DNA of 32,000 bases from Candidatus Pelagibacter ubique HTCC1062 (GCF_000012345.1 NC_007205.1:60001-92000), one strand, 5' to 3'; numbered from the stretch's first letter, positions 69-25,588 are shown. Translations and numbers: made by a program. The notes: generated from the letters alone by a model not told the origin.

Positions 69-2219
69 CTATCCAATTGATATTAAAGTAAGATCATCAC
101 TTAATTTTCCAGATTTAGAGCTGTCAATTATTTTTTTACTAATATCTGATAAGTGTTTCTTCGAATCTTTTGTGTAGTTATCTTCAATTATTTCAATTGA
201 ACCTTCAATACCTATTTCTTGTCCTTCAGCATTTAAACTTTCAGACAATCCATCTGTAAAAACATAAAATTTGTTTCCATTTAAAACTTGTTTATTAATT
301 TTATAAATTGATTTATTTTTTTGGTGAATAACCCCCATCGGCGGCGCTTCACTATCAAAATTTTGGTATTTACCATTTTTGTCTCTAATGATAGCTGGTT
401 GATGTCCCGCATTTACCCATGAAACTTCTTTGGTAATTAAATCATATTTTCCAAGAACACATGTCACAAACATGCCTGATGTTTTGGTGAGAAATAAATC
501 GTTATTCATATGAAGCATCATTTCATCTGGATCTACCTGATCTCTTGACATGACTTCAAATAAAGTAGAGGCTTTTGCCATCACCATTCCAGCATGAACT
601 CCCTTACCTGCTACATCTGCAATTATAAAATTAATACTATCATTATGGGGATAAAAACTAAAAAAATCACCTGAAACTTCTCTCGAAGCAATATTAATTC
701 CTTGCACAGGATAATTTTGTAAATCTCTTTTTGGTAAAAAATTTTCTTGAACTTTTACAGCCAAATTTATTTCTTTGGAAATTCTACTTCGCCACTTTTC
801 TTTTTCATTTTCGCTAACCTCAAGCTTGTTCATCAATTTATTATAATAAAGTCCTATTACCCCTCCTGCAGTGAAAGGATCTTGTGGGCCTCTAACAGAG
901 AGATCTCCACTTTCAGACTGTTTTTCAAGGATTGAAATTAAATCATGTTCTACTGAAACTGCATTATGTTCAGCAATATTTAATCCTAATTCCTCTTGTA
1001 AAGGAGTTACTCTTAATGGATAAAAATAATTTAAAATTTTTAAAATAATATAAGATCCAAAAAATGCGAAAGCACCAATTGCTAATATTCCTATAACCTG
1101 GACTTCAATTTGCTCTAACCTTGTAAGTCCTGTTCCTAATTTTTCTAAATCACTGAACAAACCAACTGAAATAGTTCCCCATACACCTGCTCCTAAATGA
1201 ACTGGCACTGCACCTACGACATCATCTATCTCATATTTGTTTAACAGTTCATTTATAAAAATTGCTACGATTGCACCAATAATACCAACAAAAATTGCCG
1301 TAACTGATGTCATTGAATTACAACCAGCTGTTATAGCAACCAATCCTGCAAGAGGACCTAATATTACATAAAATGGATCTGGTTTTTTAAATAATAAAAA
1401 TGAAATACCTAGTCCAGTTAACAACCCAAAAGCAGCAGAAAGAAATGTATTTATCAATATTAATGGCACTGTTTCATCCATTGCTCCATTACTTCCGCCA
1501 TTAAAACCAAACCAACCAAACCATAAAATTAAGGTTCCTAAAACGGCTAACGGAAAACTAGAGCCAGTAAATTTACCTTTATTAGACTCAGAATATTTAC
1601 CAATTCTTGGCCCTAAAATTAATACAGCAGCAAGTGCAATCCATCCTCCAACAGAATGAACAATAGTGCTACCAGCAAAATCAACAAAACCAAGTTCTGT
1701 TAACCATCCAGTATTTTTAATTTCTCCCGTAACAGCCGATAACTGCATTACAGTATCATTCATATTATTTAGATAACTGGATGACCAAGCCCAATGACCA
1801 ACAATTGGATAAATTATGCCAGTTGCAATTATCGTTATTATTAAATATCCATTAAATTTCATTCTTTCAGCCACAGCTCCAGAAACTATTGTTGCAGCAG
1901 TTGCAACAAACATGGCTTGGAACACAAAATATGTCATGTAATCAGCTTTTTCGGTTTTAAAGAAAAAAAGATCTGTTCCAAAAAAACCATTATAACTTGT
2001 CCCAAACATTAAGCCGAAACCAAAAATCCAAAAAACTACAACTGATAAACCAAAATCAGCAGCATTCTTAAGAGCAACGTTAATACTATTTTTGTGTCGT
2101 GAAAGACCAGTTTCCATACACATGAAACCAGCTTGCATGATGAAAACTAATATCGCACAATCAATAACCCAAAGAGTATCAACAAACGATTTTACAGATT
2201 CCAAACTAATACTTTCCAT
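69..2219 (-). CDS. Ammonium transporter (Amt/MEP) domain fused to a C-terminal PP2C/SpoIIE-type serine phosphatase domain
   Basis: The N-terminal ~400 aa is multi-TM with Amt signatures: AGFMCMETGLSRHKNSINVALKN, VDFAGSTIVHSVGGWIALAAVLILGPRIG and the second pore His in VPVHLGAGVWG. A coiled-coil-like linker follows (NKLEVSENEKEKWRSRISKEINLAVKVQENFLP). PP2C/SpoIIE motifs then follow: SGDFFSFY, IADVAGKGVHAG, FTDGLSES and DDLTLISIG. Confidence 0.85.
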   Translation of the reverse strand: MESISLESVKSFVDTLWVIDCAILVFIMQAGFMCMETGLSRHKNSINVALKNAADFGLSVVVFWIFGFGLMFGTSYNGFFGTDLFFFKTEKADYMTYFVFQAMFVATAATIVSGAVAERMKFNGYLIITIIATGIIYPIVGHWAWSSSYLNNMNDTVMQLSAVTGEIKNTGWLTELGFVDFAGSTIVHSVGGWIALAAVLILGPRIGKYSESNKGKFTGSSFPLAVLGTLILWFGWFGFNGGSNGAMDETVPLILINTFLSAAFGLLTGLGISFLLFKKPDPFYVILGPLAGLVAITAGCNSMTSVTAIFVGIIGAIVAIFINELLNKYEIDDVVGAVPVHLGAGVWGTISVGLFSDLEKLGTGLTRLEQIEVQVIGILAIGAFAFFGSYIILKILNYFYPLRVTPLQEELGLNIAEHNAVSVEHDLISILEKQSESGDLSVRGPQDPFTAGGVIGLYYNKLMNKLEVSENEKEKWRSRISKEINLAVKVQENFLPKRDLQNYPVQGINIASREVSGDFFSFYPHNDSINFIIADVAGKGVHAGMVMAKASTLFEVMSRDQVDPDEMMLHMNNDLFLTKTSGMFVTCVLGKYDLITKEVSWVNAGHQPAIIRDKNGKYQNFDSEAPPMGVIHQKNKSIYKINKQVLNGNKFYVFTDGLSESLNAEGQEIGIEGSIEIIEDNYTKDSKKHLSDISKKIIDSSKSGKLSDDLTLISIG

Positions 2220-2322
2220 TTTCTATCAATTTATAAATATCATCTTTAAATTTATTTTAAAATTTATCAATTGTTAAAGATGCGATTAATTAGCTAAAAT
2301 TAATAATAACTCTTAAAATTTC

Positions 2323-4560
2323 TTATTTACCAATTGCAATAATTGTTAAATCATCATCAAGAATATCATTATCTTTTTTAACGCCATCTTCCACAATTTC
2401 TTTTTTTAAACTTTTTAAACGAATTTCTTCTGTCGCACTTGTTAATTCTTTTTGTAATGAAGAGTTTGTGTGTTTTAGGATTAATTCTTTTACACCATCA
2501 ATTCCTATTTCTTGTTTATTTTCATCCATACATTCTGAAAATCCATCAGTAAAACAGTAAATTCGTCCACCATTTAATTTAAAGCTTTCTAATTGATAAA
2601 CACTTTCATCTTTATGCTTAATGACTGCCAAAGGCATTGAGCTTGAAGGATATTCTTTAAAATCTTTACCCACTTTTAATAAAGTTGGCTGATGTCCAGC
2701 ATTTGCAATTTCAACTAAATCTGTTTTCAAATTATATCTTCCAACAATTGAAGTAATAAAGGTACCAACAGGATTAGTTTCTTTCAAATCATTATTCATC
2801 TCTAATAAAATTTCGTTAGGCTTAAATTTTTGCTTAGCGAAGATCTTAAATAAAGTAATAGCTTTTGCCATAACCATTCCTGCATTCACCCCTTTTCCTG
2901 AAACATCAGATAGGGTGAAATACACCTCATCATCATGAAGGTAAAAATCATAAAAATCTCCCGAGATTTCTCTTGCAGGAATATTTAATCCAAATATTGG
3001 ATAGTTTTCTATATCTCTTTTTGGCATTAATCGTTGCTGAACATTCATTGCAAGTTTAATTTCTTTAGAAACTCTATTCTTCCATTTGTTTTTTTGCTTT
3101 TCACTTTGTTCCAATTTGTTCATTATGACATTATATTGCGTGCCAATAATTCCACTTTCAGTAAAAGGATCTTGTGGTGCGCGGCTTGAATAATTGTCTG
3201 ATTTTGCTTGATTAGTTAATACCTCAAGTAATTCGTGCGTGTCCGTTGATGCATTGTGTTCTGAAATATTTAAACCAAGTTCTTCATGAATTTTACTTAC
3301 TCTTAGAGGGAAAAATGAATTAATAGTTTTTAATATTAAATAAGAACCAATGAAACAAAAAGCACCAATTGAACTTATGCCAATTAGTTGAATATATATT
3401 TGTTCTAATCTTGTTTTTTCAACACCCATCAATTCAAAATTTGCAAACAAAGCAACTGCAATAGTTCCCCAAATTCCACATGCTAAGTGAACTGGTATTG
3501 CACTAACCACATCATCAATTTTAATTTTTTCAAGTAATACAATTGTTGAGCCTGAAATAATTCCACCAATACTTCCTATTATAATTGCATGAGTGGGATC
3601 AACATAAGCACAAGAAGCAGTTATTGAAACTAGTCCAGCAAGGGGACCCGTGATCATAAATAATGGCTCTGGTTTTTTTAAAACAATGATACCCATAACA
3701 CTTGAGAAAATAAGTCCAAAGGATGCTGATAAAAAAGTATTAATTAAAATTAATGGAATTTTTAAATCCATTGCACCATTAGCACCTCCATTAAATCCAA
3801 ACCAACCAAACCACAAAATTAAAGCACCTAAAGCTGCCATTGGTGTATTACTTCCTTGAAAAGATTTTTTTTTATCATCTTCTCTAAATCTTCCAGTACG
3901 GTTACCAACTACCAGTAATACTGATAAAGCAATCCATCCTCCTACAGAGTGTACAACGGATGCACCTGCAAAATCTAAATATCCTAATTGACCTAACCAA
4001 CCAAATTTTTCAGCAGGATTTTCAAAATTAAATGCCCAAGACCAGTGACCTACAATTGGATAAAAGAGGCCAGAAACTAATAATGTAATAATTATATATG
4101 AGAAAAACTTTAATCTTTCTGCAACTGCACCTGAGATAATAGTTGCAGCTGTTGCAACAAACATTGCTTGGAAGACAAAATATGTTTGATAGCCTGCAAC
4201 CTTAGTGGTGAAGAAAAAAAATTTGGTACCAAACAGTCCTGATACACTGGTTCCATACATTAATGCGAAACCAAACGCCCAAAAAACTACAACAGATATT
4301 CCAAAGTCTGAAACATTTTTAAGGGCAACGTTAATACTGTTCTTGTTCCGAGACAAACCAGTCTCTAAACACATAAAGCCTGCCTGCATTAAAAAAACAA
4401 GGATTGCACAAATTAAAAGCCAAAAGGTATCTAAATTTGCTTGTAAGATTGCATCTAAGCGAAATTCTAATGCATTTAAAGCTCCCTTATTAGTAAGCTC
4501 TAATTGATTTATGTTGGACTGCAGCTTATTGAGCAATATCTGAGTATCAGCTGCAGTCAT
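2323..4560 (-). CDS. Ammonium transporter domain fused to PP2C/SpoIIE phosphatase (paralog of the 69-2219 gene)
   Basis: Same architecture, colinear over the full length: AGFMCLETGLSRNKNSINVALKN, LDFAGASVVHSVGGWIALSVLLVVGNRTG, IPVHLACGIWG, then SGDFYDFY, LSDVSGKGVNAG, FTDGFSEC and DDLTIIAIG. It has an extra ~45-aa N-terminal extension. Confidence 0.85.
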   Translation of the reverse strand: MTAADTQILLNKLQSNINQLELTNKGALNALEFRLDAILQANLDTFWLLICAILVFLMQAGFMCLETGLSRNKNSINVALKNVSDFGISVVVFWAFGFALMYGTSVSGLFGTKFFFFTTKVAGYQTYFVFQAMFVATAATIISGAVAERLKFFSYIIITLLVSGLFYPIVGHWSWAFNFENPAEKFGWLGQLGYLDFAGASVVHSVGGWIALSVLLVVGNRTGRFREDDKKKSFQGSNTPMAALGALILWFGWFGFNGGANGAMDLKIPLILINTFLSASFGLIFSSVMGIIVLKKPEPLFMITGPLAGLVSITASCAYVDPTHAIIIGSIGGIISGSTIVLLEKIKIDDVVSAIPVHLACGIWGTIAVALFANFELMGVEKTRLEQIYIQLIGISSIGAFCFIGSYLILKTINSFFPLRVSKIHEELGLNISEHNASTDTHELLEVLTNQAKSDNYSSRAPQDPFTESGIIGTQYNVIMNKLEQSEKQKNKWKNRVSKEIKLAMNVQQRLMPKRDIENYPIFGLNIPAREISGDFYDFYLHDDEVYFTLSDVSGKGVNAGMVMAKAITLFKIFAKQKFKPNEILLEMNNDLKETNPVGTFITSIVGRYNLKTDLVEIANAGHQPTLLKVGKDFKEYPSSSMPLAVIKHKDESVYQLESFKLNGGRIYCFTDGFSECMDENKQEIGIDGVKELILKHTNSSLQKELTSATEEIRLKSLKKEIVEDGVKKDNDILDDDLTIIAIGK

Positions 4561-4573
4561 AATTTTATTTTAA

Positions 4574-4903
4574 TTAATCTACTAATTTTCTAGCTTCACC
4601 AGCATCAGTAATAATCTTATCAACACTTACTACTTTAATAACTTCAAAGCCTGTTCCAAGTATTGCTTTTTTATAATCTTCATTAGATAAATCAGATTTA
4701 TCAGGGTAAGATGATACCGCAACACCTTCTGGCCATGAGACTTTAACAGTAGCAGATGGGCTAGCTGCTTGAAGTGCTTTAGTTACCATTTTTTGGCATT
4801 TAATACACATCATTCCATTTACTTGGGCAATTTGAGTTTGAGCTGCAAATAAATTGGTTGAAAATAAAACAAAACCTAAAAATAGTATATATTTTTTGAA
4901 CAT
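4574..4903 (-). CDS. Secreted heavy-metal-associated (HMA; MerP/CopZ-like) domain protein
   Basis: N-terminal signal peptide (MFKKYILFLGFVLFSTNLFAAQ) followed by the GMxCxxC-type motif NGMMCIKCQKMVTKAL. The size fits a single ferredoxin-like HMA fold. It sits 13 nt upstream of the Amt::PP2C gene on the same strand. Confidence 0.55.
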   Translation of the reverse strand: MFKKYILFLGFVLFSTNLFAAQTQIAQVNGMMCIKCQKMVTKALQAASPSATVKVSWPEGVAVSSYPDKSDLSNEDYKKAILGTGFEVIKVVSVDKIITDAGEARKLVD

Positions 4904-5035
4904 AGTTTTTCCTATTGTTAATTATAAGTCAAAGCTATCACGCATCAATTCATTTTAAAATTCGTCAATCGCCCAAAATGAGCCTTTTTGATTAAGATGA
5001 ACTCAAATATCTATATTTCTTGAATAATTTATATA

Positions 5036-5326
5036 TTATCTATGAATACTCATTGGATCAAAATAACAATCCATATGATCTATAGTTTCAAAAAAAATTT
5101 CATTTAACTCACTAGAATGAACCGTTGGACAAATTTTTTCTACATTTAATTCATTAATATAATCTTTTTTAAATTTTTTCATTGTTGAGGAGCCAGCATA
5201 AGATGCTGAAGCTTGTAAAATACTTCCAGAGTTAACTAGAGTTAAGCTTGGCCCAAGTGCTGCAGAATATGGACCGCAATTATTTAATAACGGTATAAGC
5301 AAGAATATTAAAATAATTTTTTTCAC
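5036..5326 (-). CDS. Hypothetical small lipoprotein
   Basis: Signal peptide with a lipobox-like LLNNC (MKKIILIFLLIPLLNNCG). No recognisable domain. Confidence 0.4.
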   Translation of the reverse strand: MKKIILIFLLIPLLNNCGPYSAALGPSLTLVNSGSILQASASYAGSSTMKKFKKDYINELNVEKICPTVHSSELNEIFFETIDHMDCYFDPMSIHR

Positions 5327-5398
5327 ATCATCAATTTATGCAAGAATATTTAATTTGAAACTGTAAAACTATCCATTATGGGTGGTTAGCTAATTTTT

Positions 5399-5836
5399 TT
5401 AGCAATCATCGCCTCTAGTAAAATTGCCGTTACGACTAAGGATTAATTGGCAAGCTCCATCGATTTCTTTAGCAATTATATTAAAATTTGAAGAACCTAT
5501 GCTTGCAACACAAATTTCATAACCCATATCTTTACCAATTTGATCTCCTCCACCAAACAAAATTGTTTCAATATCATTTGATGTTGATGAGGTAGGTGTG
5601 CAGCTATCATTATCCTGCGTGTAATAATTTCCACTATTTGAATATTCTTCTGTTTGAGCTAGTGATATTTGTAGCATCACATTTTTTGTAGATTTTTCTT
5701 TAGTGCCTGAAATATAACCGCTGTAAGTAATAACTCCTACAGAAGCTAAAATACCAATTATTGCTACCACAACTAAAAGCTCAACCAGGGAAAACCCTAG
5801 TGAGCTTTTAATTTTTATTTTTTTTGTTTCTTGCAA
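5399..5836 (-). CDS. Type IV pilin-like protein (second pilin; possibly minor or PilE-like)
   Basis: Class III signal with prepilin cleavage/methylation motif: SSLG|FSLVELLVVVAIIGILASVG, with Phe+1 and Glu+5. It has an unusually long basic leader (MQETKKIKIKSSLG) and two Cys pairs in the C-terminal half. It starts 9 nt after the upstream pilin stop. Confidence 0.8.
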   Translation of the reverse strand: MQETKKIKIKSSLGFSLVELLVVVAIIGILASVGVITYSGYISGTKEKSTKNVMLQISLAQTEEYSNSGNYYTQDNDSCTPTSSTSNDIETILFGGGDQIGKDMGYEICVASIGSSNFNIIAKEIDGACQLILSRNGNFTRGDDC

Positions 5837-5845
5837 TCGAGATGA

Positions 5846-6331
5846 TTATTCTATTGCAACAGCATTAGTTAGTACGTCAACAGTTGCGTCGTCACCATAC
5901 TGTGTTGAAACGGTAATAGTTCCAGCATCATCCCCTGTTATTGTTGTAACACCTTTTCCTGATGCTAGACATGTTGTACTACCATCTGAAGCCGTTGGCA
6001 CAGTACTACCGTCTGTTACTCCTTTACAAACTGGCGTGTATGTGTTTTTAAAATCTGCTAGTGCAGCAACAGCACCACTCATGATTAAAGCTTCTGTTCT
6101 GCCTGAACATGTTAAATTTCCACTCATTGCAGTAGACTCAGTACCCATGTTACATTTTTGAATTTCAGCAGCTAAATATTTTGTTACTGCCCCTTGGTTT
6201 GATTTAGAAGCATTAATTTTTGCACTCTTAGTGTAACCATTGTAAGCAACAACACCTACCGCAGCTAAAATACCTATAATTGCTACAACAACTAGCAATT
6301 CAATAAGTGTAAAACCTTTATTATTTTTCAT
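5846..6331 (-). CDS. pilA: Type IVa major pilin candidate
   Basis: Short leader plus MKNNKG|FTLIELLVVVAIIGILAAVG (Phe+1, Glu+5). The globular part is Ser/Thr/Gly-rich with two Cys pairs (CNMG..LTC and CKGV..TTC). It is the first gene after a 158-nt divergent intergenic region. Confidence 0.8.
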   Translation of the reverse strand: MKNNKGFTLIELLVVVAIIGILAAVGVVAYNGYTKSAKINASKSNQGAVTKYLAAEIQKCNMGTESTAMSGNLTCSGRTEALIMSGAVAALADFKNTYTPVCKGVTDGSTVPTASDGSTTCLASGKGVTTITGDDAGTITVSTQYGDDATVDVLTNAVAIE

Positions 6332-6489
6332 AATTTCCTCTGTTATTAGTTATTATTATTAAATTTATTATAATTATTGATGATGTAAACTAAAAATCTT
6401 ATTATATTAAATAATAATCAAAGATAATTGACCATATTGGGTTTACTTGTTTCTTATTTTTGTTAATAGCTATAAATAGTAAATAAAAT

Positions 6490-6774
6490 ATGAAATATAA
6501 AGTTACAGATAATGAAAATGTAAGCACTGTTTTTCTTACTGGAGAAATAGATATGGATGTTGCAGATGAGGTAAGAGAAATTGTTTTTCCTTTAATTGAT
6601 GCTGGAAAAGAAGTTCATTTAAATTTAAAAGATGTACCCTACATGGACTCTTCTGGTATATCGATAATTATAGAAAGCAATCAAAGAGCTCGAGAGAAAA
6701 ATACTAAAGTTGAACTTAAAGAGGTTAGTCAACCTGTTGAAAAAGTTCTAGCAATGGCAAGAAAGTTTTTATGA
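6490..6774 (+). CDS. STAS-domain anti-sigma-factor antagonist (SpoIIAA/RsbV family)
   Basis: 94 aa with the conserved phosphorylatable-serine context YMDSSGISIIIES (compare DSSGL in SpoIIAA/RsbV). Its 4-nt ATGA overlap with the next STAS gene suggests translational coupling. Confidence 0.8.
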   Translation: MKYKVTDNENVSTVFLTGEIDMDVADEVREIVFPLIDAGKEVHLNLKDVPYMDSSGISIIIESNQRAREKNTKVELKEVSQPVEKVLAMARKFL

Positions 6775-7070
6775 CATACAAAATTACAGAAGAAGACAAT
6801 ATAAGCACCATATTTTTAGATGGTGAAATAGACATGGATAAAACGGATGAAGTTAAGGGAGTTATCTTTCCTGTTATCGACTCTGGTAAAAATGTTGCTT
6901 TAAATCTAAGTAATGTTCAATACATGGATTCTTCTGGTATTTCAGTTTTAATAGAAAGTCATCAAAAAGCCCTTGAGAAGGGAACCAAGCTTGTCATTAA
7001 AGATGTGAGTAAATCTGTTTTAAAAGTAATCATGATGGCAAAGTTAGAACAAATTTTAAATTTGGAGTAA
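6771..7070 (+). CDS. STAS-domain anti-sigma-factor antagonist, second tandem paralog
   Basis: 99 aa with the same YMDSSGISVLIES motif. 54 of 94 aligned positions are identical to the upstream paralog by my hand alignment. Confidence 0.8.
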   Translation: MTYKITEEDNISTIFLDGEIDMDKTDEVKGVIFPVIDSGKNVALNLSNVQYMDSSGISVLIESHQKALEKGTKLVIKDVSKSVLKVIMMAKLEQILNLE

Positions 7071-7077
7071 ATAAATT

Positions 7078-7512
7078 ATGAGTTTAGAAAACTTTAGTCA
7101 TTCAGAAAAAAAAGATTTTTTAGTTAGCTCAGCAAGTTTGAAAGATGTCAGAGCTTTTTCTAGAGATGTTTTTGAAAAATTTAAAATTGATGAAGATTTA
7201 AGAGAAGAGTTAGTTTTAGCGATTGCTGAAGCTGCGCAAAATATAGTTAAACATGCATATAAAGATATGCCTGACACTCAAGATAAAATGGTTGTAAGAA
7301 TATCTTGTAATGATGATGTTCTAGAGATTTCTTTCTTTGATAAAGGCAAACCAGTAGAAAAAAGCAAAGTTAAACATAGAGCGATCGATGATATTAAACC
7401 AGGTGGACTAGGAACATTTTTCATTCAACAAATTATGGATTCAATTAATTTTGAACCAGGAAAAGAACCCTGGATTAATAATTTAGTTTTAACTAAAAAA
7501 TTAAAAAATTAG
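7078..7512 (+). CDS. RsbW/SpoIIAB-like anti-sigma-factor-type serine protein kinase (HATPase_c)
   Basis: 144 aa with an N-box-like EAAQNIVKHAY and a G-box-like KPGGLGTFFIQQIMD. It lies immediately downstream of the two STAS genes, the classic antagonist-kinase order. Confidence 0.75.
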   Translation: MSLENFSHSEKKDFLVSSASLKDVRAFSRDVFEKFKIDEDLREELVLAIAEAAQNIVKHAYKDMPDTQDKMVVRISCNDDVLEISFFDKGKPVEKSKVKHRAIDDIKPGGLGTFFIQQIMDSINFEPGKEPWINNLVLTKKLKN

Positions 7513-8741: not shown

Positions 8742-8743
8742 TT

Positions 8744-10495: not shown

Positions 10496-12051
10496 TATAA
10501 AATTCTTGGAGCGATAAATACCAATAACTCGTTCATTGTATCAGAATTTGATTTTCCACTAAGTACTTTTCCTAGAATTGGTACTTTTGACGTTCCTGGA
10601 ACACCTTGTCTATTATTCGCTACGTTATTTTTTTTAATACCACCAATTACAACTATATCCCCATCAGCTACTAATAATTTTGTATTTATCTCCATTTTAT
10701 TTACACCTACTGATGCTGCATTTGCTCTATTTGGAGTATCATTGTTTACTTGAATTGAAAGCATAACGTTTCCATCACCTATGATATTAGGAGTAACTAT
10801 CAGTTTTAATGATGCATCAACTGGTTTATCTTCCCCTTCTCCACCATCAATATAAATTGTTTCACCCTGATTAATACTTGCTTGTTGATTATCTAATGTA
10901 AATAATTTTGGATTAGATACTGTTTTTGATAAGCCTTGAGCTTCTAAAAAATCAAGTTCAAGTTTTAAAACAGCAGAACCTGTTTTTTTCAATATTCCAA
11001 TTCCACTTGTTGCAGCAGCTGACCCAAAATTTACTAAATTATCTGTTCCAGCACCGCTTGTAAAAGCACCTGTTGAATCAGATAATGCAGCCCCTGAACC
11101 AGATGCAGCTCCTACACTACTACCTCCTTGTGTACCACCCATTCTTAAACTTTTTCTTGTATAAGCGGCTCCAAGTCTTTTTCCTAAACTTTGCTCAAAT
11201 GTTGAAGTAGCTTCAACTATAAAAGCTTCTATTAAAACCTGTTTTGTTCTTTTATCAATTTCTCGAATAACTTTATCAACGATATCTAAATCTTTCTCTT
11301 TACCTCTAACAATAATTGATCTTGTGGTTGCTTCTTCCGTTACTTGTATTGGTATAAAATTTCCATTCGTTCCAACAGTTGTAAATAATTCTGTGATTGT
11401 GGCTTTAGCTTCTGATGGAGTTATATAATAAAGTCTAAAAATTTCTGAAATAATTGGTTCTACTGAATCTTCTAATTCAACTTTTTTCTTAACTGCTGAA
11501 GCTCTCGCTGATTTATAACCTTCTTGTGACGTTAGATTAGCAGGAGTAGAAACTCTAATAATATTACTTGCTACATCTATGTCTGCTGCATAATTTTTTA
11601 AATCTAATAATGCATTAAATGCTTTATCCCATGGAACATTATCTAACTCTGCACTTATTGATCCTGCCACATCGTCACCTACTAAAATATTAATTTGACC
11701 AACTTCAGACATTAATTTCATTGCTTCTTTAAAATCTAAAGCTTGAAATTTAAAAGAAACATTTTGTTTTAAAGATTTGAAATCTTCCGAAATTAATAAA
11801 TAATTTCTCTCTTTAACAGATGATATTTGTTTCCTTTTTTTAAGCTTTACGACATCACCTTCAGCAGGAGTTGGTCCCATTTCTACACTTTTTTCAACCT
11901 CTAGTTTTCCAGTTTTCTTGATATCAGTTTTTATTAGTGGGGTGTCGTGTTTAAAAGAACCAGTGTTTTTAGCAAATTTTTCAGCACAACCTGTTAAAAA
12001 AATAAATAAAAAAGGTAAAATTAAAAATGATATTCTTTTTTTAAATTTCAT
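10495..12051 (-). CDS. pilQ: Type IV pilus secretin with an N-terminal lipobox
   Basis: C-terminal secretin signature (VVIGGIKKNNVANNRQGVPGTSKVPILGKVLS...ELLVFIAPRIL) and N0/secretin_N-like repeats. The signal peptide ends in LTGC. Its stop shares one nucleotide (10495) with the pilB start. Confidence 0.85.
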   Translation of the reverse strand: MKFKKRISFLILPFLFIFLTGCAEKFAKNTGSFKHDTPLIKTDIKKTGKLEVEKSVEMGPTPAEGDVVKLKKRKQISSVKERNYLLISEDFKSLKQNVSFKFQALDFKEAMKLMSEVGQINILVGDDVAGSISAELDNVPWDKAFNALLDLKNYAADIDVASNIIRVSTPANLTSQEGYKSARASAVKKKVELEDSVEPIISEIFRLYYITPSEAKATITELFTTVGTNGNFIPIQVTEEATTRSIIVRGKEKDLDIVDKVIREIDKRTKQVLIEAFIVEATSTFEQSLGKRLGAAYTRKSLRMGGTQGGSSVGAASGSGAALSDSTGAFTSGAGTDNLVNFGSAAATSGIGILKKTGSAVLKLELDFLEAQGLSKTVSNPKLFTLDNQQASINQGETIYIDGGEGEDKPVDASLKLIVTPNIIGDGNVMLSIQVNNDTPNRANAASVGVNKMEINTKLLVADGDIVVIGGIKKNNVANNRQGVPGTSKVPILGKVLSGKSNSDTMNELLVFIAPRIL

Positions 12052-12053
12052 AA

Positions 12054-12560
12054 TTATTTTGTTCTTTCTGTAATTTTATTATTAAAATTTATCACTAAGA
12101 GAGAGTTTTCATTTTTTTCAAAAACTGCTTCTCTATTGTTAAGTCCAACTAATTTTACTCCAGGGCTTAATTCTTCAAACCTAGCTAAAGTAATTATATT
12201 TCCACTTGAATTAATTAAAGATACGAACCCATCATCATTTGCAGAGGTCATTATCCCAACTAATTTAAACTTATATAAGCTCATTTCATTTTGTGCCTCT
12301 TCTGGATTACTTGATAAAATTGTATTACCACCAGTTAATGAACTATCTCCAGCAAAAGGATCGTTTAATGGAAGAGGCTCTTCATCTTTAATTTCTGATG
12401 AAATATTCGATTGTGAATTTGCCTGTTTTTCTTTGATCTTTTTATTTATCTCTTTAGCTTTATCAATAATGTTTTGCTCTTTATCATGACTATCAGCCAT
12501 GGAAACTTTTGATAGCAACATAAAAAACACTGAAATAATGATTATTTTAAAAAAATTCAT
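12054..12560 (-). CDS. pilP: PilP-like pilus assembly protein
   Basis: Signal peptide, a low-complexity linker and a C-terminal beta-domain resembling PilP (YKFKLVGIMTSANDDGFVSLINSSGNIITLARFEELSPGVKLVGLNNREAVF). Its position between the pilO-like gene and pilQ fits. Confidence 0.55.
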   Translation of the reverse strand: MNFFKIIIISVFFMLLSKVSMADSHDKEQNIIDKAKEINKKIKEKQANSQSNISSEIKDEEPLPLNDPFAGDSSLTGGNTILSSNPEEAQNEMSLYKFKLVGIMTSANDDGFVSLINSSGNIITLARFEELSPGVKLVGLNNREAVFEKNENSLLVINFNNKITERTK

Positions 12561-13224
12561 TTGGTAACCCCACTATTGTTAACGTACCTTTTACTTTTAT
12601 CGCTCCAGTTGTATTCCCTTTTACCACCTGAATAGACTCTTTGTCAAAGTTTAACATTTTGTTAGAAAGCGATAGAGCTCTTTTAAATTTTATGTAACCA
12701 ATAAAATTACCATCAATTTCAAAATCAACAGGGATCAAATAATAGGCAATATTTGCAACATTTTTAACTTGGTTGTTTTTCTTTTTTTTCGTTTTTTTAC
12801 CGTCTGCTTGGGCTAAGGCTTGTGCTTTTAATACTTCTTGAATTACCTTTTTTTCAATTCTAGTGATTACTAGATCATTTTGTCCGGCATATTCACTTAA
12901 TGTTTGATAAAGACCCTCTACTTCAGCTTTAGAATGAAACAAGCTAGAGTATTTTTCATAATCAGGCTTAAGTTTTTTAATTCTTGCTCTCATTGAATAA
13001 ATTTCAGAAGTAAATTTTGCAGTTTCTTGTATTTTCAAATTCATGTCGTCCAATTTAGCTTTTCTAGACTCAACCATTGGATTTAAAATTGCGTAATAAA
13101 TTATTAAGAAAAAAACAATTGCACCAAAGATTATTCCTATTTTTATAAGAGTTTTTTTATCAGCTAATTTTGTAATCTGATCCTTGATATCAGACATGTT
13201 AATATTTTTTAAATCTATATCCAT
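12547..13224 (-). CDS. pilO: PilO-like bitopic pilus alignment protein
   Basis: One N-terminal TM (LIKIGIIFGAIVFFLIIYYAIL), then a coiled coil and a ferredoxin-like C-terminal region. The call rests on synteny between PilN and PilP, so it is mainly positional. Confidence 0.55.
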   Translation of the reverse strand: MDIDLKNINMSDIKDQITKLADKKTLIKIGIIFGAIVFFLIIYYAILNPMVESRKAKLDDMNLKIQETAKFTSEIYSMRARIKKLKPDYEKYSSLFHSKAEVEGLYQTLSEYAGQNDLVITRIEKKVIQEVLKAQALAQADGKKTKKKKNNQVKNVANIAYYLIPVDFEIDGNFIGYIKFKRALSLSNKMLNFDKESIQVVKGNTTGAIKVKGTLTIVGLPNEFF

Positions 13225-13226
13225 TG

Positions 13227-15770
13227 CTATATTTTACCTGTTTTAATTTTTACAAACACTCTAAAGCCTTTCATTGTAGCACCACCTGCTGTAGATTTTG
13301 GTAATCGCATTGATGATAAAGATGCTTGCTCAACCAATTTTTGATTTCCTAAATTTTCTATAAATTTCAATATATCTTGATCACTTGCAGCTATTCCTTG
13401 AATAGTTAATCTTCTAGATCCATTAAATTCAACTTGATCAAATTTTACACGGTTTGGAACACTTGAGGCTACTTGAGCTAAAATTCTATAAGTTAATTCT
13501 TTATTTGATTTAAGTGTTCTACTTAATTTTAAAGACGTATTAATTACACTAAGTTCTTTTGAAACTATTTTTTTCTGTTTAATAATTTTAGCATGATCTA
13601 TTTTTACAGTTTCATATTGTTTTAATTTTTTATTATAGGAAGCAATATTCCAAAAAGATAAACCAAATAATACCACATAAATTGCAACTACAGCAGCAGT
13701 AATACCCTTGAATGCAAAACCTGAAATTGCTTTCATCTTCTTTTGCTTCATTACATTTGATCTATCTGGAAGAAGATTTATATTTTTAACTGCAGTAACA
13801 AATTTATAATAACCAAAGACATCAAGTTTTCTAAAGGCTAAGCCAACAGAAGTAGATAGATAAGATCTATTTAACTTATTATCTAAAATTTGTTGATACT
13901 GACTTGGAATTTTTAATCCTTCAGTAGGATCAAAAGTGTTAAATCCAACATTCATTAAAATTTTTCTAAAACTTCCTAAATATTCGTCTACATTTTTGAT
14001 ATCTGAAACAACTTTTATGTTTCGAATTCTCTTTTCATATTTAGTCTCAAAATCTTGAATTGCTTGCTTAACTTGAGTAACATATCTTCTAACTAATCCT
14101 TCTTTTTCTTCAGTATCTTGAGAATCTTGTAAAATTTTTCTATCTTGCCCTCTAATAAAAATATCAGTTATTATTGGGTTATTATTATAGAGGATCATTA
14201 AATAATTTTCATCTAATCCAAATTCTAAAACAGCAGTTAAATTGGCATCCTCAGTTTTATTTGTTATTTGATTAACTTGATCAACTGATGACTTTAAAGC
14301 AAAACATTTAACATCTATGATTACAGGATTTAAACCTGCATTTTTAATTATTGAAGTATAACTATTTATATCTGTTAATTTTGATGCAACGAATAAAATA
14401 TCCATTGTATTTTCTTTATCATTTCTATTTATGACTTGATGAAAAATAGAATAATCTTCCAAACTATCTGTTAGTTGAACTAGGTTTTCCCACAATGAAT
14501 TAGTTTCGATTGCTTTATTTAATTCATCTTCTTTCATTAAAGGTGCGGTGACTACTCTTATGATTGCACTAGTTACCGGAATAGCAATTGCTGCATTTGG
14601 TGAAGTTATTTTGTATTTTTGAATTGCTAATACTAATTCTTCTGAAAATTTATCCGCATTATCAATTGGAGTACTATCATCTGTAATGTCGACGGGGTGA
14701 ATATGTAATTTTTCTAACACCCATTGATTAGCTTTGTTACTAGAAACTTGGACTATTCTTATTTCTTTATTTGCTAACTCAATACCAATTATTTCTTCGC
14801 CTTGAACACTAGATTTACCTAATTTGGATTTGAAAAAATTTTGTATTTTTGATTTATAATTTCCAACTTTAGAATTATTAAAAGATGATTTTTTTATATT
14901 TTTAGCAAAATCTGGTTTTTTAATTTTAATTTCCTTAATTTTTCCAAAAATATTTGATAATTTACTTTTTACCTGATCTTGGGTAGATATTTCTGAGTTT
15001 TCATTTAATGGAACACTTGAAGTTTGTGGTTGTGCTTCATTATTACTTTGATTGGTTGTTGAAATATCAATTTGTGAAGATTCACCCTCTTCTGGCTTAA
15101 TATTTTCTTCAATTTTTAATTTTTTACTTTCTTCATGAACATCATCAAACCATTTTTCCAAAATTGGTATTGCATCATCTAAATTTGTTGTTCCAGAAGA
15201 TGAAATTTTTTGTTTACCATCAATATAAAGTCTACCTACCCAGTTTCTTGATTTAAGTTCACCTTTATATTTATCTTGCCTTACATATATATGTAGTCTT
15301 CCATCTTTTTTATGAATTACCTCATGCTCTTTTTTTTGTTCCTCATTATTAGTATTTGATGCACTTACATTTTGCTCAACAGATTCATCTTGAGATTGTA
15401 AAGTTTCTGAATTTTCAGTTAAATTATCATTTTCATTGGATTTTTCTGATTCATTATTATCAGTTTCTTGAGGATTTAAAGTATCAGTTGAATCGTTTTC
15501 AGATTGGTTTTCCTGATCACTCTTTAAAGTCTCTTCATCATTATTAGTATTTGATGCACTTACATTTTGCTCAACAGATTCATCTTGAGATTGTAAAGTT
15601 TCTGAATTTTCAGTTAAATTATCATTTTCATTGGATTTTTCTGATTCATTATTATCAGTTTCTTGAGGATTTAAAGTATCAGTTGAATCGTTTTCAGATT
15701 GGTTTTCCTGATCACTCTTGAGAGTATCTTCCTCTTTATAATCAAATTTGTCTTTATTATCTTCGTCCAT
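13227..15770 (-). CDS. PilM-PilN fusion protein with a ~325-aa N-terminal extension
   Basis: Residues ~325-660 are PilM-like actin-fold (EIIGIELANKEIRIVQVS...). Residues 663-847 are PilN: the INLLPDR motif at about 13764-13790, a TM (ITAAVVAIYVVLFGLSFW) and a periplasmic domain. The N-terminal extension is acidic and Asn/Ser-rich with a duplicated 65-aa unit, followed by a Lys-rich block. Confidence 0.75.
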   Translation of the reverse strand: MDEDNKDKFDYKEEDTLKSDQENQSENDSTDTLNPQETDNNESEKSNENDNLTENSETLQSQDESVEQNVSASNTNNDEETLKSDQENQSENDSTDTLNPQETDNNESEKSNENDNLTENSETLQSQDESVEQNVSASNTNNEEQKKEHEVIHKKDGRLHIYVRQDKYKGELKSRNWVGRLYIDGKQKISSSGTTNLDDAIPILEKWFDDVHEESKKLKIEENIKPEEGESSQIDISTTNQSNNEAQPQTSSVPLNENSEISTQDQVKSKLSNIFGKIKEIKIKKPDFAKNIKKSSFNNSKVGNYKSKIQNFFKSKLGKSSVQGEEIIGIELANKEIRIVQVSSNKANQWVLEKLHIHPVDITDDSTPIDNADKFSEELVLAIQKYKITSPNAAIAIPVTSAIIRVVTAPLMKEDELNKAIETNSLWENLVQLTDSLEDYSIFHQVINRNDKENTMDILFVASKLTDINSYTSIIKNAGLNPVIIDVKCFALKSSVDQVNQITNKTEDANLTAVLEFGLDENYLMILYNNNPIITDIFIRGQDRKILQDSQDTEEKEGLVRRYVTQVKQAIQDFETKYEKRIRNIKVVSDIKNVDEYLGSFRKILMNVGFNTFDPTEGLKIPSQYQQILDNKLNRSYLSTSVGLAFRKLDVFGYYKFVTAVKNINLLPDRSNVMKQKKMKAISGFAFKGITAAVVAIYVVLFGLSFWNIASYNKKLKQYETVKIDHAKIIKQKKIVSKELSVINTSLKLSRTLKSNKELTYRILAQVASSVPNRVKFDQVEFNGSRRLTIQGIAASDQDILKFIENLGNQKLVEQASLSSMRLPKSTAGGATMKGFRVFVKIKTGKI
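15344..15733. repeat. Two-copy 195-bp in-frame tandem duplication inside the pilMN 5' region
   Basis: 15344-15524 is identical base for base to 15539-15719 (181 nt, hand-checked), giving a period of 195 nt or 65 codons. The unit encodes EETLKSDQENQSENDSTDTLNPQETDNNESEKSNENDNLTENSETLQSQDESVEQNVSASNTNN. Confidence 0.9.
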
Positions 15771-15834
15771 AAAACTTATAAATAAAAATTAATATTTAAA
15801 TTGTTAATTGATTCTCTAACACAAAATTAATAAA

Positions 15835-15845
15835 ATTCTAACACA
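15835..15845 (-). promoter_or_regulatory. Candidate extended -10 element (TGTGTTAGAAT read on the minus strand) for the pilMN operon
   Basis: The reverse complement of attctaacaca gives TG-T-TAGAAT, i.e. TGn plus a 5/6 match to TATAAT. It lies ~65 nt upstream of the pilMN ATG (15770). No good -35 sits at 17 nt; TTGAAC at 15862-15867 is 21 nt away. AT-rich context makes chance matches likely. Confidence 0.25.
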
Positions 15846-16138
15846 AGATTATAATCATTATGTTCAAAATGGGTTGAATTTAATAAGAAACTATAAAATA
15901 TTCAATTAAATCAACAGTTTATTAAAATCATTGAAAAAAATTAAATTTAAGATATTTTTTTCTAAATAATATTTTCTCTAACACATTTATCATAATTTTA
16001 TCTTTTTATATTGTGTTAGAAATTTAATATTTTTTTCTATTTTTAAAAAATAAGTAAAATAGCTATTTTTTATTAAAACAACTTTTAATTGTTTTTTGTG
16101 TGAGAGAAAATTTTTTTTGTGTGAGAGAAAAATTTATT

Positions 16139-16149
16139 TGTGTTATAAT
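16139..16149 (+). promoter_or_regulatory. Candidate extended -10 element TGTGTTATAAT on the plus strand
   Basis: Perfect TGnTATAAT within the duplicated context tttatttgtgttataatt. It points rightwards into the palindrome array, with no ORF downstream. Confidence 0.2.
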
Positions 16150-16167
16150 TTTTTTAATTTTTTTTGT

Positions 16168-16311
16168 TTAGAATTATTCTAATATATTTTTTTTTCCTAC
16201 ATTAGAAATATTCCAAACTATTTTTTTTCTCTTTAGAAAGATTCTAATATATTTTTATTTTACTTTAGAAAGATTCTAATATATTTTTTGCAAATTTTAG
16301 AATTATTCTAA
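16168..16311. repeat. Five-unit ~32-bp tandem array, each unit carrying the palindrome TTAGAA-N3-TTCTAA
   Basis: Palindromes lie at 16168-16182, 16202-16216 (TTCCAA, one mismatch), 16233-16247, 16265-16279 and 16297-16311. Spacings are 34, 31, 32 and 32 nt. Each is followed by a TATATTTTT-like tract. Confidence 0.85.
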
Positions 16312-16502
16312 TTTATAAAAAAAAAAAATTATTTTTTTTCTCTAACACAAAAATTTTATTCTAACACATTTAAAAAAAAAAAAAATTATTTCATTTTGTG
16401 TTAGAAAATTAACATAATATTCTTTTTTAAAAAAGTAAGCAAAATCAACGTTTTTAATATTATGAATATAAAACATAAAATGTGTTAGAGCTATATTTAT
16501 TT

Positions 16503-16513
16503 TGTGTTATAAT
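16503..16513 (+). promoter_or_regulatory. Candidate extended -10 element TGTGTTATAAT on the plus strand (second copy)
   Basis: Same 20-nt context as 16139 (tttattttgtgttataatt). It points toward the less AT-rich repeat segment 16690-17114 and would run antisense into the 3' end of the GAF::PP2C gene. Confidence 0.2.
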
Positions 16514-16586
16514 TATTAATATTATCATATTTTTAAAAAAGTCAATAAAATCAACATTTTTTATATTTTCAATAAATTTATTGATT

Positions 16587-16660
16587 TGTGTTAGAGATAA
16601 TTTTAATTTTTATCCTATGTGTTAGAAATAATTTATATTTTTTATGCTGTGTGTTAGAGA
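16587..16660. repeat. Three-unit ~32-bp tandem array starting with TGTGTTAGAR-ATAA
   Basis: Units start at 16587, 16618 and 16650 (spacings 31 and 32 nt): tgtgttagagataatttt..., tgtgttagaaataattta..., tgtgttagagataaatat... Confidence 0.8.
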
Positions 16661-16857
16661 TAAATATGAATATTAACAAAAGCTCAAACAGCCTTACATC
16701 ACTCATCCCTTTGGGATAATATATATAAATTTTAACATTGATCCATCAATTGTTGATTATTGCGGATGGCAATATTAGATTTTGATACAATTTATATTAT
16801 GGTTAAAGCCTAAATCTGGGGACTAAACTCAAATTAACTAATTAAATCTGATTTGTG

Positions 16858-16958
16858 GCAAATTATGAGAGATTTCACTCTAAATTAGAGATTTGACTAC
16901 CAGTATAGGATTTATAGCAAATTATGAGAGATTTCACTCTAAATTAGAGATTTGACTA
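16858..16958. repeat. 59-bp-period direct repeat (42-nt identical core x2, plus a degenerate third unit to ~17026) with an internal palindrome CTCTAA-A-TTAGAG
   Basis: 16858-16899 equals 16917-16958 (gcaaattatgagagatttcactctaaattagagatttgacta). Internal palindromes lie at 16878-16890 and 16937-16949. The third unit (~16968-17026) retains TTCTAA...GATATTTGAC...TTAGAA. Confidence 0.85.
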
Positions 16959-17114
16959 GGATTGCAGGATTTATTTCTAATTATCAGATATTTGACCCAA
17001 AATTAGAATTATTACATGAAACTGGGGGTAATTACTCTTATTAACTGGAAACTATCCCATAAACATTTTTACTCTATCTTAAAGAGTGTAAATAAAAACA
17101 TCTATCCATAATTA

Positions 17115-18461
17115 TTAACCATCAACCGTTACAATTGTTAAATCATCCTTTTGTATTCGACCAGATTTAATTATATCCTCGATAATCTTGTTTAATCTTT
17201 CATGGTTTGGAATTTGTTGATACTTTTTTATATAATCTTTAAATCCTTCTGCCTCTAACATATTTCCTTTAGCATCTCTTATTTCCGTAATACCATCAGT
17301 AAAAATATACATTGAGCTGTTTGAAAAATTAATTTTAGTTTCTTTAAATTTAAACTTAGGAGCAATGCCTAAAGGAGGTCCTGCTTCTTCAAAATTAGAA
17401 AAGTTTCCATCTTTAGAATAAATTAACGGAGGTTCATGACCAGCGTTTGATAAAGTTAATTCTTTTTTGTTACTATCGTAAATTCCAACCAGCATTGTTA
17501 CAAACATTCCTCTTGAAGTAGTTTCACAAATTTCTGTATTTAAAATATCTAAAAGACCTGCTGCAGAAAAATTTGTTTTACTTAAACATCTATAAAGACT
17601 AGATGCTTTAGACATTAGTAATGAAGATTTAATTCCTTTACCTGAAACATCTGCAACTCCAAATCCATAAACTCCATTGGATAATTCTGAAAAATTATAA
17701 AAGTCTCCAGAAACAACCTTGGCAGGAATATTTATTCCAGCAATAGGAAAATTTTCTTTAATGTTTTGAGATAGTAATGTTTTTTGAATCTCTCCAACAA
17801 TTTCTATTTCTTTTTCTATTCTATTTTTAACAATCAAATCTTTTGCCATCTTAGCATTTCTAATTGCTAATGCAGCAGGACCAGATAAAGTTTCTAAAAG
17901 TTTTCTATCGCTTTCTTCAAAAAGTTTGTTGTCTGTTTTTTTATTTAAACAATGAATAACACCAATACATTCATCTGAAACAATTAATGGTGAACATAAA
18001 ACAGAATAAGTTGTAAAATTTGTTTTATTATCTAAATCAAAATAAAATTCTGCAATTTCTCTTACATCCTTTCTAACATCTCCAACTCTTATACATTGTT
18101 TCATGAGTGCTGCTTTTCCCATGACACCTTGAGTAATTGGAATTTCAAAATCTTCTAGATATGCTTGGTGTTTTGATGCAATACATTGAAAGTTTTGCTT
18201 ATCATTATCTATTAAAAAAATGTTAGCAGCTTGAGCATTAATTCTTTTAATAATTAGCTCTAATGAAGTTTGTAGTGTTTCTTTTAAATCAAGAGTTTTA
18301 GCAAACTCCTGGCTCATTTTTGTAACCAATTCTAAGTCTTTAACGCTCGTATTGTCGACTTTTATTGTTTCTGTTTTTTTAGCACCAAAAAACATGTTAT
18401 TTATAAATTGATATTCATTAAATTTTTGATAGTTTTGAGACTGATGGAACTCATTATTCAT
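17115..18461 (-). CDS. GAF-domain-containing PP2C/SpoIIE-type serine phosphatase
   Basis: The N-terminal half is GAF-like (LETLQTSLELIIKRINAQAANIFLID...GVMGKAALMKQCIRVGDV...CSPLIVSDECIGVIHCLNK). The C-terminal half has PP2C motifs: SGDFYNFS, VADVSGKGIKSS, FTDGITEI and DDLTIVTVDG. Confidence 0.8.
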   Translation of the reverse strand: MNNEFHQSQNYQKFNEYQFINNMFFGAKKTETIKVDNTSVKDLELVTKMSQEFAKTLDLKETLQTSLELIIKRINAQAANIFLIDNDKQNFQCIASKHQAYLEDFEIPITQGVMGKAALMKQCIRVGDVRKDVREIAEFYFDLDNKTNFTTYSVLCSPLIVSDECIGVIHCLNKKTDNKLFEESDRKLLETLSGPAALAIRNAKMAKDLIVKNRIEKEIEIVGEIQKTLLSQNIKENFPIAGINIPAKVVSGDFYNFSELSNGVYGFGVADVSGKGIKSSLLMSKASSLYRCLSKTNFSAAGLLDILNTEICETTSRGMFVTMLVGIYDSNKKELTLSNAGHEPPLIYSKDGNFSNFEEAGPPLGIAPKFKFKETKINFSNSSMYIFTDGITEIRDAKGNMLEAEGFKDYIKKYQQIPNHERLNKIIEDIIKSGRIQKDDLTIVTVDG

Positions 18462-25060: not shown

Positions 25061-25063
25061 AAA

Positions 25064-25588
25064 TTAAAAAAACTTTATGACATTAGGTCCGAACAAAAAT
25101 GAATCAAACTCTGGCTTTGTAATAATTAACATTTCATAAATTCCACTTGAATCACTAACTCTACCATAAATGACGTCATCACCAAAAGATGACAAAGATA
25201 TAGCCCCTGTCCACTCTTCATCAAAATCTACTTCACTTTTGTACCCTAAATGTGTTTTTGCAAAGTCTATAATTTTGTTATTTTTTGCTTCACCCAAAGC
25301 ACCTTCAATTTCAGTTCCAATGAGTTTTCCTTCTTTAATAAATACTTTTAAAACACTATTTTCTAATTGAGAATTTTCACATAAATTTAAACTGTCATAT
25401 TCTTTAACGTAGGTAGCAGTTGGATCACCACCACCCGGAGGCTCGTCTAAATTATCATATTTTTCAATGATGCTTGAAACTGGGGTACCAATTTGTTCTT
25501 TTAAAAATTCACACGCCCCGCTCATGCTTAATGAACTGAAATATAAAAAAAGTGATAAAAATCCAATAAAGATATTTTTCATTATCAT
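25064..25588 (-). CDS. Hypothetical secreted protein between the pilX-like gene and pilY1
   Basis: Signal peptide (MIMKNIFIGFLSLFLYFSSLSMSGA). No pilin motif and no recognisable domain. A 3-nt gap to the pilY1 start suggests co-transcription. Confidence 0.45.
   Translation of the reverse strand: MIMKNIFIGFLSLFLYFSSLSMSGACEFLKEQIGTPVSSIIEKYDNLDEPPGGGDPTATYVKEYDSLNLCENSQLENSVLKVFIKEGKLIGTEIEGALGEAKNNKIIDFAKTHLGYKSEVDFDEEWTGAISLSSFGDDVIYGRVSDSSGIYEMLIITKPEFDSFLFGPNVIKFF

Follow-up and report, generated by a model that had tools for sequence, protein, structure and literature searches.

A putative ammonium-responsive partner-switching relay embedded in the type IVa pilus gene cluster of Candidatus Pelagibacter ubique HTCC1062

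Bacteria of the SAR11 group are the ocean's most abundant heterotrophs and possess almost no regulation, with two sigma factors and four two-component systems. The DNA analysed here is a 32,000-nt stretch of Candidatus Pelagibacter ubique HTCC1062 (GCF_000012345.1, NC_007205.1:60001-92000), referred to as the window and numbered from its first nucleotide, in which six genes of partner-switching families are interleaved with the genes of a type IVa pilus (Table 1). A sequence-only reading had placed three PP2C phosphatases with Amt, Amt and GAF sensor modules, two STAS antagonists and one kinase among the pilus genes, and all six were recovered at those positions from open reading frames (ORFs) and Pfam matches. 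The geometry that it described was also reproduced: the STAS operon is divergent from pilA at a spacing of exactly 158 nt and convergent with pilC, the kinase and pilC genes overlapping by 4 nt, and the GAF::PP2C gene is divergent from pilD at a measured distance of 99 nt, given earlier as about 100 nt. The spacings between STAS1, STAS2 and the kinase (-4 and +7 nt) are those of a single operon. The pilus cluster reaches position 29734, beyond the span given earlier, through the genes for PilY1, the minor pilins and PilT, and the type IVa set is complete, comprising pilins, PilB, PilC, PilD, PilM/N/O/P, PilQ, PilT, minor pilins and PilY1.

The window has a G+C content of about 30% over its 32 kb, its proteins are 86-98% identical to those of Pelagibacterales and it spans SAR11_0049 to about SAR11_0075 of HTCC1062, with a gene order that fits the names SAR11_0049/0050 (Amt) and SAR11_0057 (RsbW). 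The phosphopeptides checked from the published HTCC1062 tables agree with the ORFs of the window, their site numbers matching exactly, and map to STAS1 S54, STAS2 S54, RsbW S2 and S76, PilMN S272, PilB T543, PilO Y92 and PilA T97. These tables list phosphosites on the kinase itself, S2 being represented by 81 spectra, and phosphorylated PilA peptides (T97/T99). No sigma factor gene was detected by Pfam in the 32-kb window, and scans of the window with Rfam (gathering thresholds) and for tRNAs gave no matches.

Table 1. Positions of genes and non-coding features in the window, with the basis of each assignment.
Feature	Position	Strand	Basis or remark
Amt::PP2C sensor phosphatase 1 (SAR11_0049)	69..2219	-	Pfam Ammonium_transp E 7e-112 and SpoIIE/PP2C 2e-35; HAMP-like linker
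Amt::PP2C sensor phosphatase 2 (SAR11_0050)	2323..4560	-	Pfam Ammonium_transp and SpoIIE; 53% identical to Amt::PP2C 1
Small secreted protein, GMxCxxC	4574..4903	-	Weak Pfam HMA match, E 0.012, below cutoff
Small lipoprotein, conserved in the neighbourhood	5036..5326	-	No Pfam match
Second type IV pilin	5399..5836	-	N_methyl motif
Major pilin PilA (SAR11_0054)	5846..6331	-	N_methyl E 8e-11
pilA/STAS divergent control region, non-coding	6332..6489	.	Alignment of 14 genomes and consensus scan
STAS antagonist 1 (SAR11_0055)	6490..6774	+	Pfam STAS
STAS antagonist 2 (SAR11_0056)	6771..7070	+	Pfam STAS; PDB alignment
RsbW/SpoIIAB-type serine kinase (SAR11_0057)	7078..7512	+	Pfam HATPase_c_2 E 2e-19
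Pilus assembly operon pilMN-pilO-pilP-pilQ-pilB-pilC (SAR11_0063 to 0058)	7509..15770	-	Pfam; genes 2 nt apart or overlapping
pilC	7509-8741	-	
pilB	8744-10495	-	
pilQ	10495-12051	-	
pilP	12054-12560	-	Assigned by position and literature name only
pilO	12547-13224	-	
pilM-pilN fusion (pilMN)	13227-15770	-	
AT-rich non-coding region, 1344 nt, 5' of pilMN	15771..17114	.	Candidate control region of the pilus operon
GAF::PP2C phosphatase (SAR11_0064)	17115..18461	-	Pfam GAF and SpoIIE
Prepilin peptidase PilD	18561..19325	+	Pfam
PilY1-like protein, minor pilins (PilX, PilW, PilV, FimU-like), retraction ATPase PilT	20345..29734	-	Pfam

Both STAS proteins can be aligned to RsbV and SpoIIAA, the YMDSSG motif with its canonical DSSG serine being preserved, and the kinase aligns to RsbW (6m36) with its N-box (NivkHAY) and GGLG box retained. 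The matches of the kinase to the NCBIfam models of RsbW and SpoIIAB lie far below the equivalog cutoffs, so it is best regarded as a family member and not as an ortholog. The three SpoIIE domains (Pfam E 1e-28 to 5e-40) all retain the metal-binding aspartate motifs of PP2C phosphatases (GD.., DV(S/A)GKG, FTDG..E and DDLT.), which in Amt::PP2C 2 read SGDFYD, DVSGKG, FTDGFSE and DDLTI. In the phosphoproteome of HTCC1062, STAS1 is represented by the phosphopeptides DVPYMDSSGISIIIESNQR (883 peptide-spectrum matches, PSMs, site ambiguous) and EVHLNLK...(pS54/S55), while pS54 of STAS2 was localized on a missed-cleavage peptide and its main peptide accounts for 1199 PSMs (PMC13198564, supplement). 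Nearby entries in these tables have about 1-100 PSMs, and the substrates expected for the kinase are therefore among the most heavily detected phosphopeptides that they list; STAS phosphorylation is passed over without discussion by the authors. Phosphorylation of Ser54 in both STAS proteins in vivo means that the switch is expressed and in use, and the six signalling genes very probably constitute a real and active partner-switching set.

The phosphoproteome, which comprises 1014 Ser/Thr/Tyr phosphosites on 555 proteins, was reported with RsbW as the only annotated Ser/Thr kinase, no recognized protein phosphatase and only two sigma factors, σ70 and σ32, both of which are phosphoproteins (PMC13198564). 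As judged from their domains, the phosphatases that seemed to be missing from HTCC1062 are the three PP2C domains encoded beside the kinase. We infer, with good support, that RsbW phosphorylates the STAS proteins and that the PP2C enzymes reverse this phosphorylation. A cognate sigma factor of the σB/σF type was found neither among the Pfam matches of the window nor in the reported sigma set, which assigns the partner switch to a non-canonical class. The GAF domain of the third phosphatase resembles the cyclic nucleotide monophosphate-binding GAF domains of CyaB2 and PDE2A; four of the five positions of the NKFDE motif are kept (NK...F...D), with arginine replacing the glutamate.

In each of the two Amt::PP2C proteins, an Amt domain is followed by a HAMP-like linker, also modelled for a SAR11 homologue (PMC11796062), and by a cytoplasmic PP2C domain. 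Among proteins of known structure, the Amt domain is closest to Sd-Amt1 (E 3e-117, the alignment extending to residue 480, into the linker) and to Ks-Amt5, and not to AmtB. The receptor class to which these belong was defined in the Sd-Amt1 paper by an internal N1/N2 binding site with the signature Q-X6-E-X15-N-X2-D-F/T-X54-60-T-X2-S/T, and both SAR11 proteins carry all seven N1/N2 ligand residues (Q, E, N, D, F, T and S, aligned to Q22, E29, N45, D48, F49, T104 and S107 of Sd-Amt1). The earlier proposal that the Amt modules are ammonium-sensing inputs is therefore upheld to the extent that their relatives and the full ligand set would place them in the ammonium-receptor class, and an ammonium input to the switch is likely. 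The Amt domains retain intact pore residues, and some N1/N2-bearing Amt proteins transport as well as sense.

The two proteins, named Amt-GI5 and corresponding to SAR11_0049/0050, have been proposed as an ammonium sensor for which no downstream partner was found (PMC11796062, 2025), and the STAS/RsbW pair is the obvious candidate for that partner. In the same work the genomes were described as being without other phosphatase domains, and the Amt-PP2C fusion as exclusive to SAR11 in the marine data set analysed. Both statements can now be qualified, since GAF::PP2C and CHASE2::PP2C adjoin the pilus genes in most Pelagibacteraceae, and proteins combining Amt and PP2C are also encoded by many Leptospira species and by SAR324, cyanobacteria and further groups. 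Many of the Amt-PP2C proteins of other phyla are single chains (Amt+SpoIIE+HATPase_c_2) with a C-terminal RsbW-type kinase domain. One such fusion (L170, 4072-7571) has two STAS genes directly upstream, another (L171, 2108-7610) has one STAS gene nearby, and in SAR324 two STAS genes lie no more than 10 kb from the Amt-PP2C gene. Kinase fusion and STAS gene order provide a link, independent of SAR11, between Amt-PP2C and a STAS/RsbW switch. The L170 and L171 modules adjoin an ATP-grasp/PGM1_C gene, which may be their output.

When species-representative genomes were scanned with PilC, 80 loci from Pelagibacteraceae were obtained, with PilC identities of 74-100%; for STAS/RsbW and for the pilus proteins, the matches listed lay within Pelagibacteraceae and reflect SAR11 microdiversity. 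The kinase gene follows pilC in 73 of the 75 loci with sufficient flank, and in the other two the whole segment from the kinase to CHASE2 is inverted and ends at the contig end. In the reverse search, started from the kinase, pilC lies downstream in 66 of 67 metagenome contigs, the remaining one having an insertion. The adjacency outlasts insertions (L007-L010) and an inversion (L057, L072), and is kept both in a clade with pilT and minor pilin genes abutting pilMN (L076-L080) and in a variant that has pilD and pilY1 upstream of the STAS genes (L128). Of the 48 loci whose flank on the pilin side is full, 46 carry one or more sensor PP2C genes there, and GAF-PP2C was found in 43 of 54 loci with full flank. 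The kind of sensor varies: CHASE2::PP2C, lacking in HTCC1062-type contigs, lies on the pilin side in 39 of the 48 loci, where it replaces or joins Amt-PP2C. STAS2 is the antagonist present in nearly all species. Hence, the three-input, two-antagonist, one-kinase circuit that had been postulated describes this strain but not the system, the kinds and counts of PP2C and the number of STAS genes being variable; likewise, conservation of the neighbourhood, proposed earlier as a check, is found for the kinase beside pilC but not for Amt-PP2C, which is variable and located elsewhere in many SAR11 genomes.

Where CHASE2::PP2C occurs (for example L013:13457-18392, as well as L006 and L009), the genes ahead of it encode a FecR-domain protein, which has a lysine-rich tail, and a predicted outer-membrane protein of 432 residues. 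The small secreted protein of positions 4574-4903, with the metal-binding-like motif GMMCIKCQ (MxCxxC), is encoded between two Amt::PP2C genes in the clade L077-L079.

The 158-nt region common to the STAS operon and pilA was aligned across 14 genomes. It contains a Shine-Dalgarno sequence (AGAGG) and a conserved pilA promoter of the σ70 type (TTTACA, about 17 nt, TAtaAT), which indicates that pilA does not depend on σ54 here. Near 6429-6443, an inverted repeat is maintained through compensatory changes, and the coordinated change of its two halves suggests a hairpin or a palindromic operator. It reads TGACCATATTGGGT in the window and its halves co-vary between species (GCTCAATTTGAGC, CCCATTATGGG), the conserved features as a whole occupying 6362-6443.

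The second candidate control region, located between pilMN and GAF::PP2C, is extraordinary for a genome almost without intergenic DNA: its 1.34 kb, with 22% G+C, hold 11 exact and four one-mismatch copies of the 9-mer TGTGTTAGA, in both orientations and often 21-22 nt apart, and no exact TGTGTTAGA site was found elsewhere in the window. The region also includes four to five palindromic TTAGAA..TTCTAA units spaced by about 32 nt, as well as a 59-nt unit present in three tandem copies. Seven or eight TGTGTTAGA sites recur in a fixed layout in distantly related Pelagibacter species, typically at about -354, -333, -247, -222, -201, -73, -50 and -29 from the pilMN start in the sense of pilMN, and the motif is similar to an extended -10 element (TGT-TAGAAT). 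L076-L080, the sole clade without the array, is also devoid of an N-terminal extension of PilMN, which is translated in HTCC1062, given that a PilMN pS272 peptide appears in the phosphopeptide tables. Within the extension, a 62-residue domain (VIHKKDGRLHIYVRQDKYKGELKS.NWVGRLYIDGKQKISSSGTTNLEEAIPILEKWFDD; residues about 150-212, window 15135-15323 on the minus strand) is at least 88% identical across species, compared with only 60-70% for the PilM and PilN parts, and a search with it gave 304 matches, apparently all from SAR11. Its AlphaFold2 model is of moderate quality (pLDDT 69) and predicts four strands and a helix. An integrase Arm-type DNA-binding domain acting on the TGTGTTAGA array was considered as a loose lead and is unsupported, with no Pfam match and no Foldseek match in the PDB better than E 0.9; small proteins that seemed to carry the domain as a separate gene were rejected as fragments of short or frameshifted contigs. 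At the very N-terminus of PilMN (residues about 16-140; about 15350-15725, minus strand), an acidic, low-complexity repeat of about 63 residues (DTLKSDQENQSENDSTDTLNPQETDNNESEKSNEND...) occurs twice in near-identical form, and this part of the protein differs between strains.

The best overall explanation of the locus, to which a probability of about 0.5 is assigned, is that it encodes the single partner-switching relay of SAR11, embedded in the type IVa pilus cluster and with its output on the pilus system. Binding of ammonium to the Amt module would change the pairing of the linker and hence the activity of the PP2C domain, by analogy with Sd-Amt1, while GAF::PP2C would add a small-molecule input and, in most other strains, CHASE2::PP2C a periplasmic one. 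With σ70 and σ32 as the only sigma factors, the output is probably non-canonical: unphosphorylated STAS, or free RsbW, would act on the pilus system, either on PilB, PilC, PilMN or PilT or on transcription through the conserved pilA promoter region and the repeat array upstream of pilMN. Under this reading, piliation would track nitrogen status, whether up or down, and would plausibly serve for the uptake of DNA or for scavenging. A 334-residue protein with two winged-helix segments (L169:13216-14220) was discarded as a candidate regulator, because only HTCC1062-like genomes have it close to the cluster; it is encoded just left of the window, two genes beyond Amt::PP2C 1, and is followed by three autotransporter genes.

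The role of the SAR11 pilus has been described as unclear; a genome from nitrogen-poor Pacific water carries the pilus genes and its Atlantic relative lacks them, and the authors of that study suggested DNA uptake as a source of nitrogen (PMC12789548). PilP increased 1.58-fold under nitrogen limitation, and dark-starved HTCC1062 cells made pili, with pilA up 2.2-fold. These data are indirect hints, and control of the pilus by the switch, for which the position of the genes argues, has slightly less than an even chance. A more specific version, a post-translational gate in which ammonium sets STAS phosphorylation, STAS binds PilB, PilC or PilMN and DNA uptake is switched on when nitrogen is scarce, is conceivable but doubtful.

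Several observations weigh against an ammonium-controlled relay acting on the pilus. The long spacer of the N1/N2 signature has 53 residues in place of the published 54-60, such that the literal pattern is unmatched and matches once the range is relaxed by one, and the levels of SAR11_0049/0050 are unchanged under nitrogen limitation, which is compatible with a sensor role and gives it no support. The signalling genes are also less constant than the kinase-pilC pair: Amt-PP2C is present on the pilin side in zero, one or two copies in 19, 26 and three of the 48 full-flank loci, respectively, and about half of the Pelagibacteraceae species lack STAS1 and have a single STAS gene. Moreover, synteny among SAR11 genomes is high, which makes conservation inside a single family a weak indication of function, and the pilus region is a flexible island that gathers accessory genes (PMC11796062). 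The closest relatives of Amt::PP2C 1 (87-90% identical, one from SAG-MED49) occupy an unrelated locus (L173-L179), as a single gene between GATase and photolyase-like genes, near argG (for example L177:8001-10148), with no pil or STAS genes within 8-10 kb; the sensor gene seems to travel as a cassette. Outside SAR11, pilus genes were found near Amt-PP2C in none of the five loci examined, whether kinase-fused or not, and in Chlamydia a network of the same parts is reported to control the availability of σ66 (PMC4552016, PMC11619594).

This last precedent underlies the main rival, a serious one, in which RsbW would sequester σ70 or σ32 and the two STAS proteins would relieve it, ammonium and other inputs tuning overall transcription or growth and the position among pilus genes being historical. 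The parts do match those of the chlamydial Rsb system, with one RsbW, two RsbV, membrane-sensor PP2C enzymes and a reduced genome with few sigma factors; both SAR11 sigma factors, moreover, are phosphoproteins, and STAS phosphopeptides that rank, among the entries listed, with the most abundant of the cell would fit a central switch. A global regulator would, however, be expected in the core genome, whereas RsbW was found outside the pilus cluster, a flexible region, in none of about 140 contexts examined, and its scores far below the RsbW/SpoIIAB equivalog cutoffs also speak against this role, which is therefore considered unlikely. The switch could also be real and have another output, such as an enzyme of nitrogen metabolism, a transporter or the envelope, with switch and pilus travelling as cargo of the same hypervariable island. 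The islands GI-5 (Amt-PP2C) and GI-6 (pilus) are indeed flexible (PMC11796062), the number and kind of sensor PP2C differ between strains, Amt-PP2C also forms a single-gene island elsewhere in SAR11, the modules of other phyla adjoin the ATP-grasp/PGM1_C gene and not pilus genes, and autotransporter adhesins and a transporter share the neighbourhood. Yet the kinase/STAS operon is not at an island edge: it lies between pilC and pilA, has the pilA promoter region in common with the latter and has been kept there through several rearrangements, and GAF-PP2C is paired divergently with pilD, all of which renders an unrelated output improbable.

Lastly, the genes may belong to a general Ser/Thr phosphorylation system that acts on many proteins, with the STAS proteins as its most abundant substrates and the Amt fusions mainly as transporters. 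The 1014 phosphosites, set against one annotated Ser/Thr kinase and no recognized phosphatase, could be read in this way, as could the intact Amt pore and the transport activity of some N1/N2 Amt proteins. On the other hand, many of the sites detected by shotgun analysis may be non-enzymatic or of low occupancy, and domain fusion and gene order link Amt-PP2C specifically to STAS and RsbW. Kinases of the RsbW family (SpoIIAB, RsbW) are, where studied, specific for their own STAS partner, which also counts against a general role, and this explanation is very unlikely.

The sequence-only reading had found no description of such a circuit, and this holds for the integrated circuit, as no paper was found that joins Amt-PP2C, STAS, RsbW and the pilus, but not for its parts, which are in print (PMC11796062, PMC13198564, PMC12789548). 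With an ammonium-sensing switch located within the pilus cluster, the suggestion of DNA uptake (PMC12789548) becomes testable. As Amt-PP2C, with or without a fused kinase, is present in Leptospira, SAR324, cyanobacteria and others, signalling from an ammonium receptor to a partner switch would be a widespread route, for which no description was found. Were the post-translational gate to be true, a PP2C transducer would be seen for the first time on an ammonium receptor, and the circuit would be the first nutrient-gated case of 'nutritional competence' in the marine bacterium of greatest abundance.

The locus combines known kinds of system, the partner switch and the Amt receptor, and does not establish a new category. 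With respect to the receptor, the SAR11 proteins resemble Sd-Amt1 (Amt-HAMP-GGDEF) and Ks-Amt5 (Amt-histidine kinase) in having an Amt domain about 50% identical to theirs, the same N1/N2 ligands and a HAMP-like linker, and differ from both in the PP2C transducer and in an N1/N2 spacer one residue under the published signature; the words 'phosphatase' and 'PP2C' do not occur in the Sd-Amt1 paper, where this type of transducer is unmentioned. With respect to the switch, the three families and the phospho-serine chemistry on the STAS DSSG motif are those of the RsbU/RsbV/RsbW-σB and SpoIIE/SpoIIAA/SpoIIAB-σF systems of Bacillus subtilis, although SAR11 lacks a cognate alternative sigma factor, its kinase scores below the equivalog cutoffs and membrane sensors take the place of RsbT/stressosome partners. 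RbaV/RbaW/RbaY of Rhodobacter capsulatus is likewise an alphaproteobacterial Rsb-like system, comparable at the family level, in which the unphosphorylated STAS protein (RbaV) is the output and affects motility and the gene transfer agent, but its sensors are different and its genes have no pilus-cluster context. The closest system by parts list, and the closest architectural analogue, is the Rsb network of Chlamydia trachomatis (RsbW, RsbV1, RsbV2, RsbU and CT589), which likewise belongs to a reduced genome lacking a σB/σF target and comprises one kinase, two STAS proteins and at least two PP2C enzymes whose sensors are of the membrane or periplasmic kind, and in which a metabolite signal feeds a phosphatase; the SAR11 sensors, in contrast, are Amt, GAF and CHASE2, whereas the chlamydial genes lie outside a pilus cluster and their reported target is the primary sigma factor. 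The closest by function is HmpU/HmpV/HmpW of Nostoc punctiforme, a set of PP2C, STAS and kinase whose genes, unlike those of SAR11, are not in the pil assembly cluster and have no Amt input, but which controls hormogonium motility driven by type IV pili, with the STAS protein, and not a sigma factor, thought to be its output.

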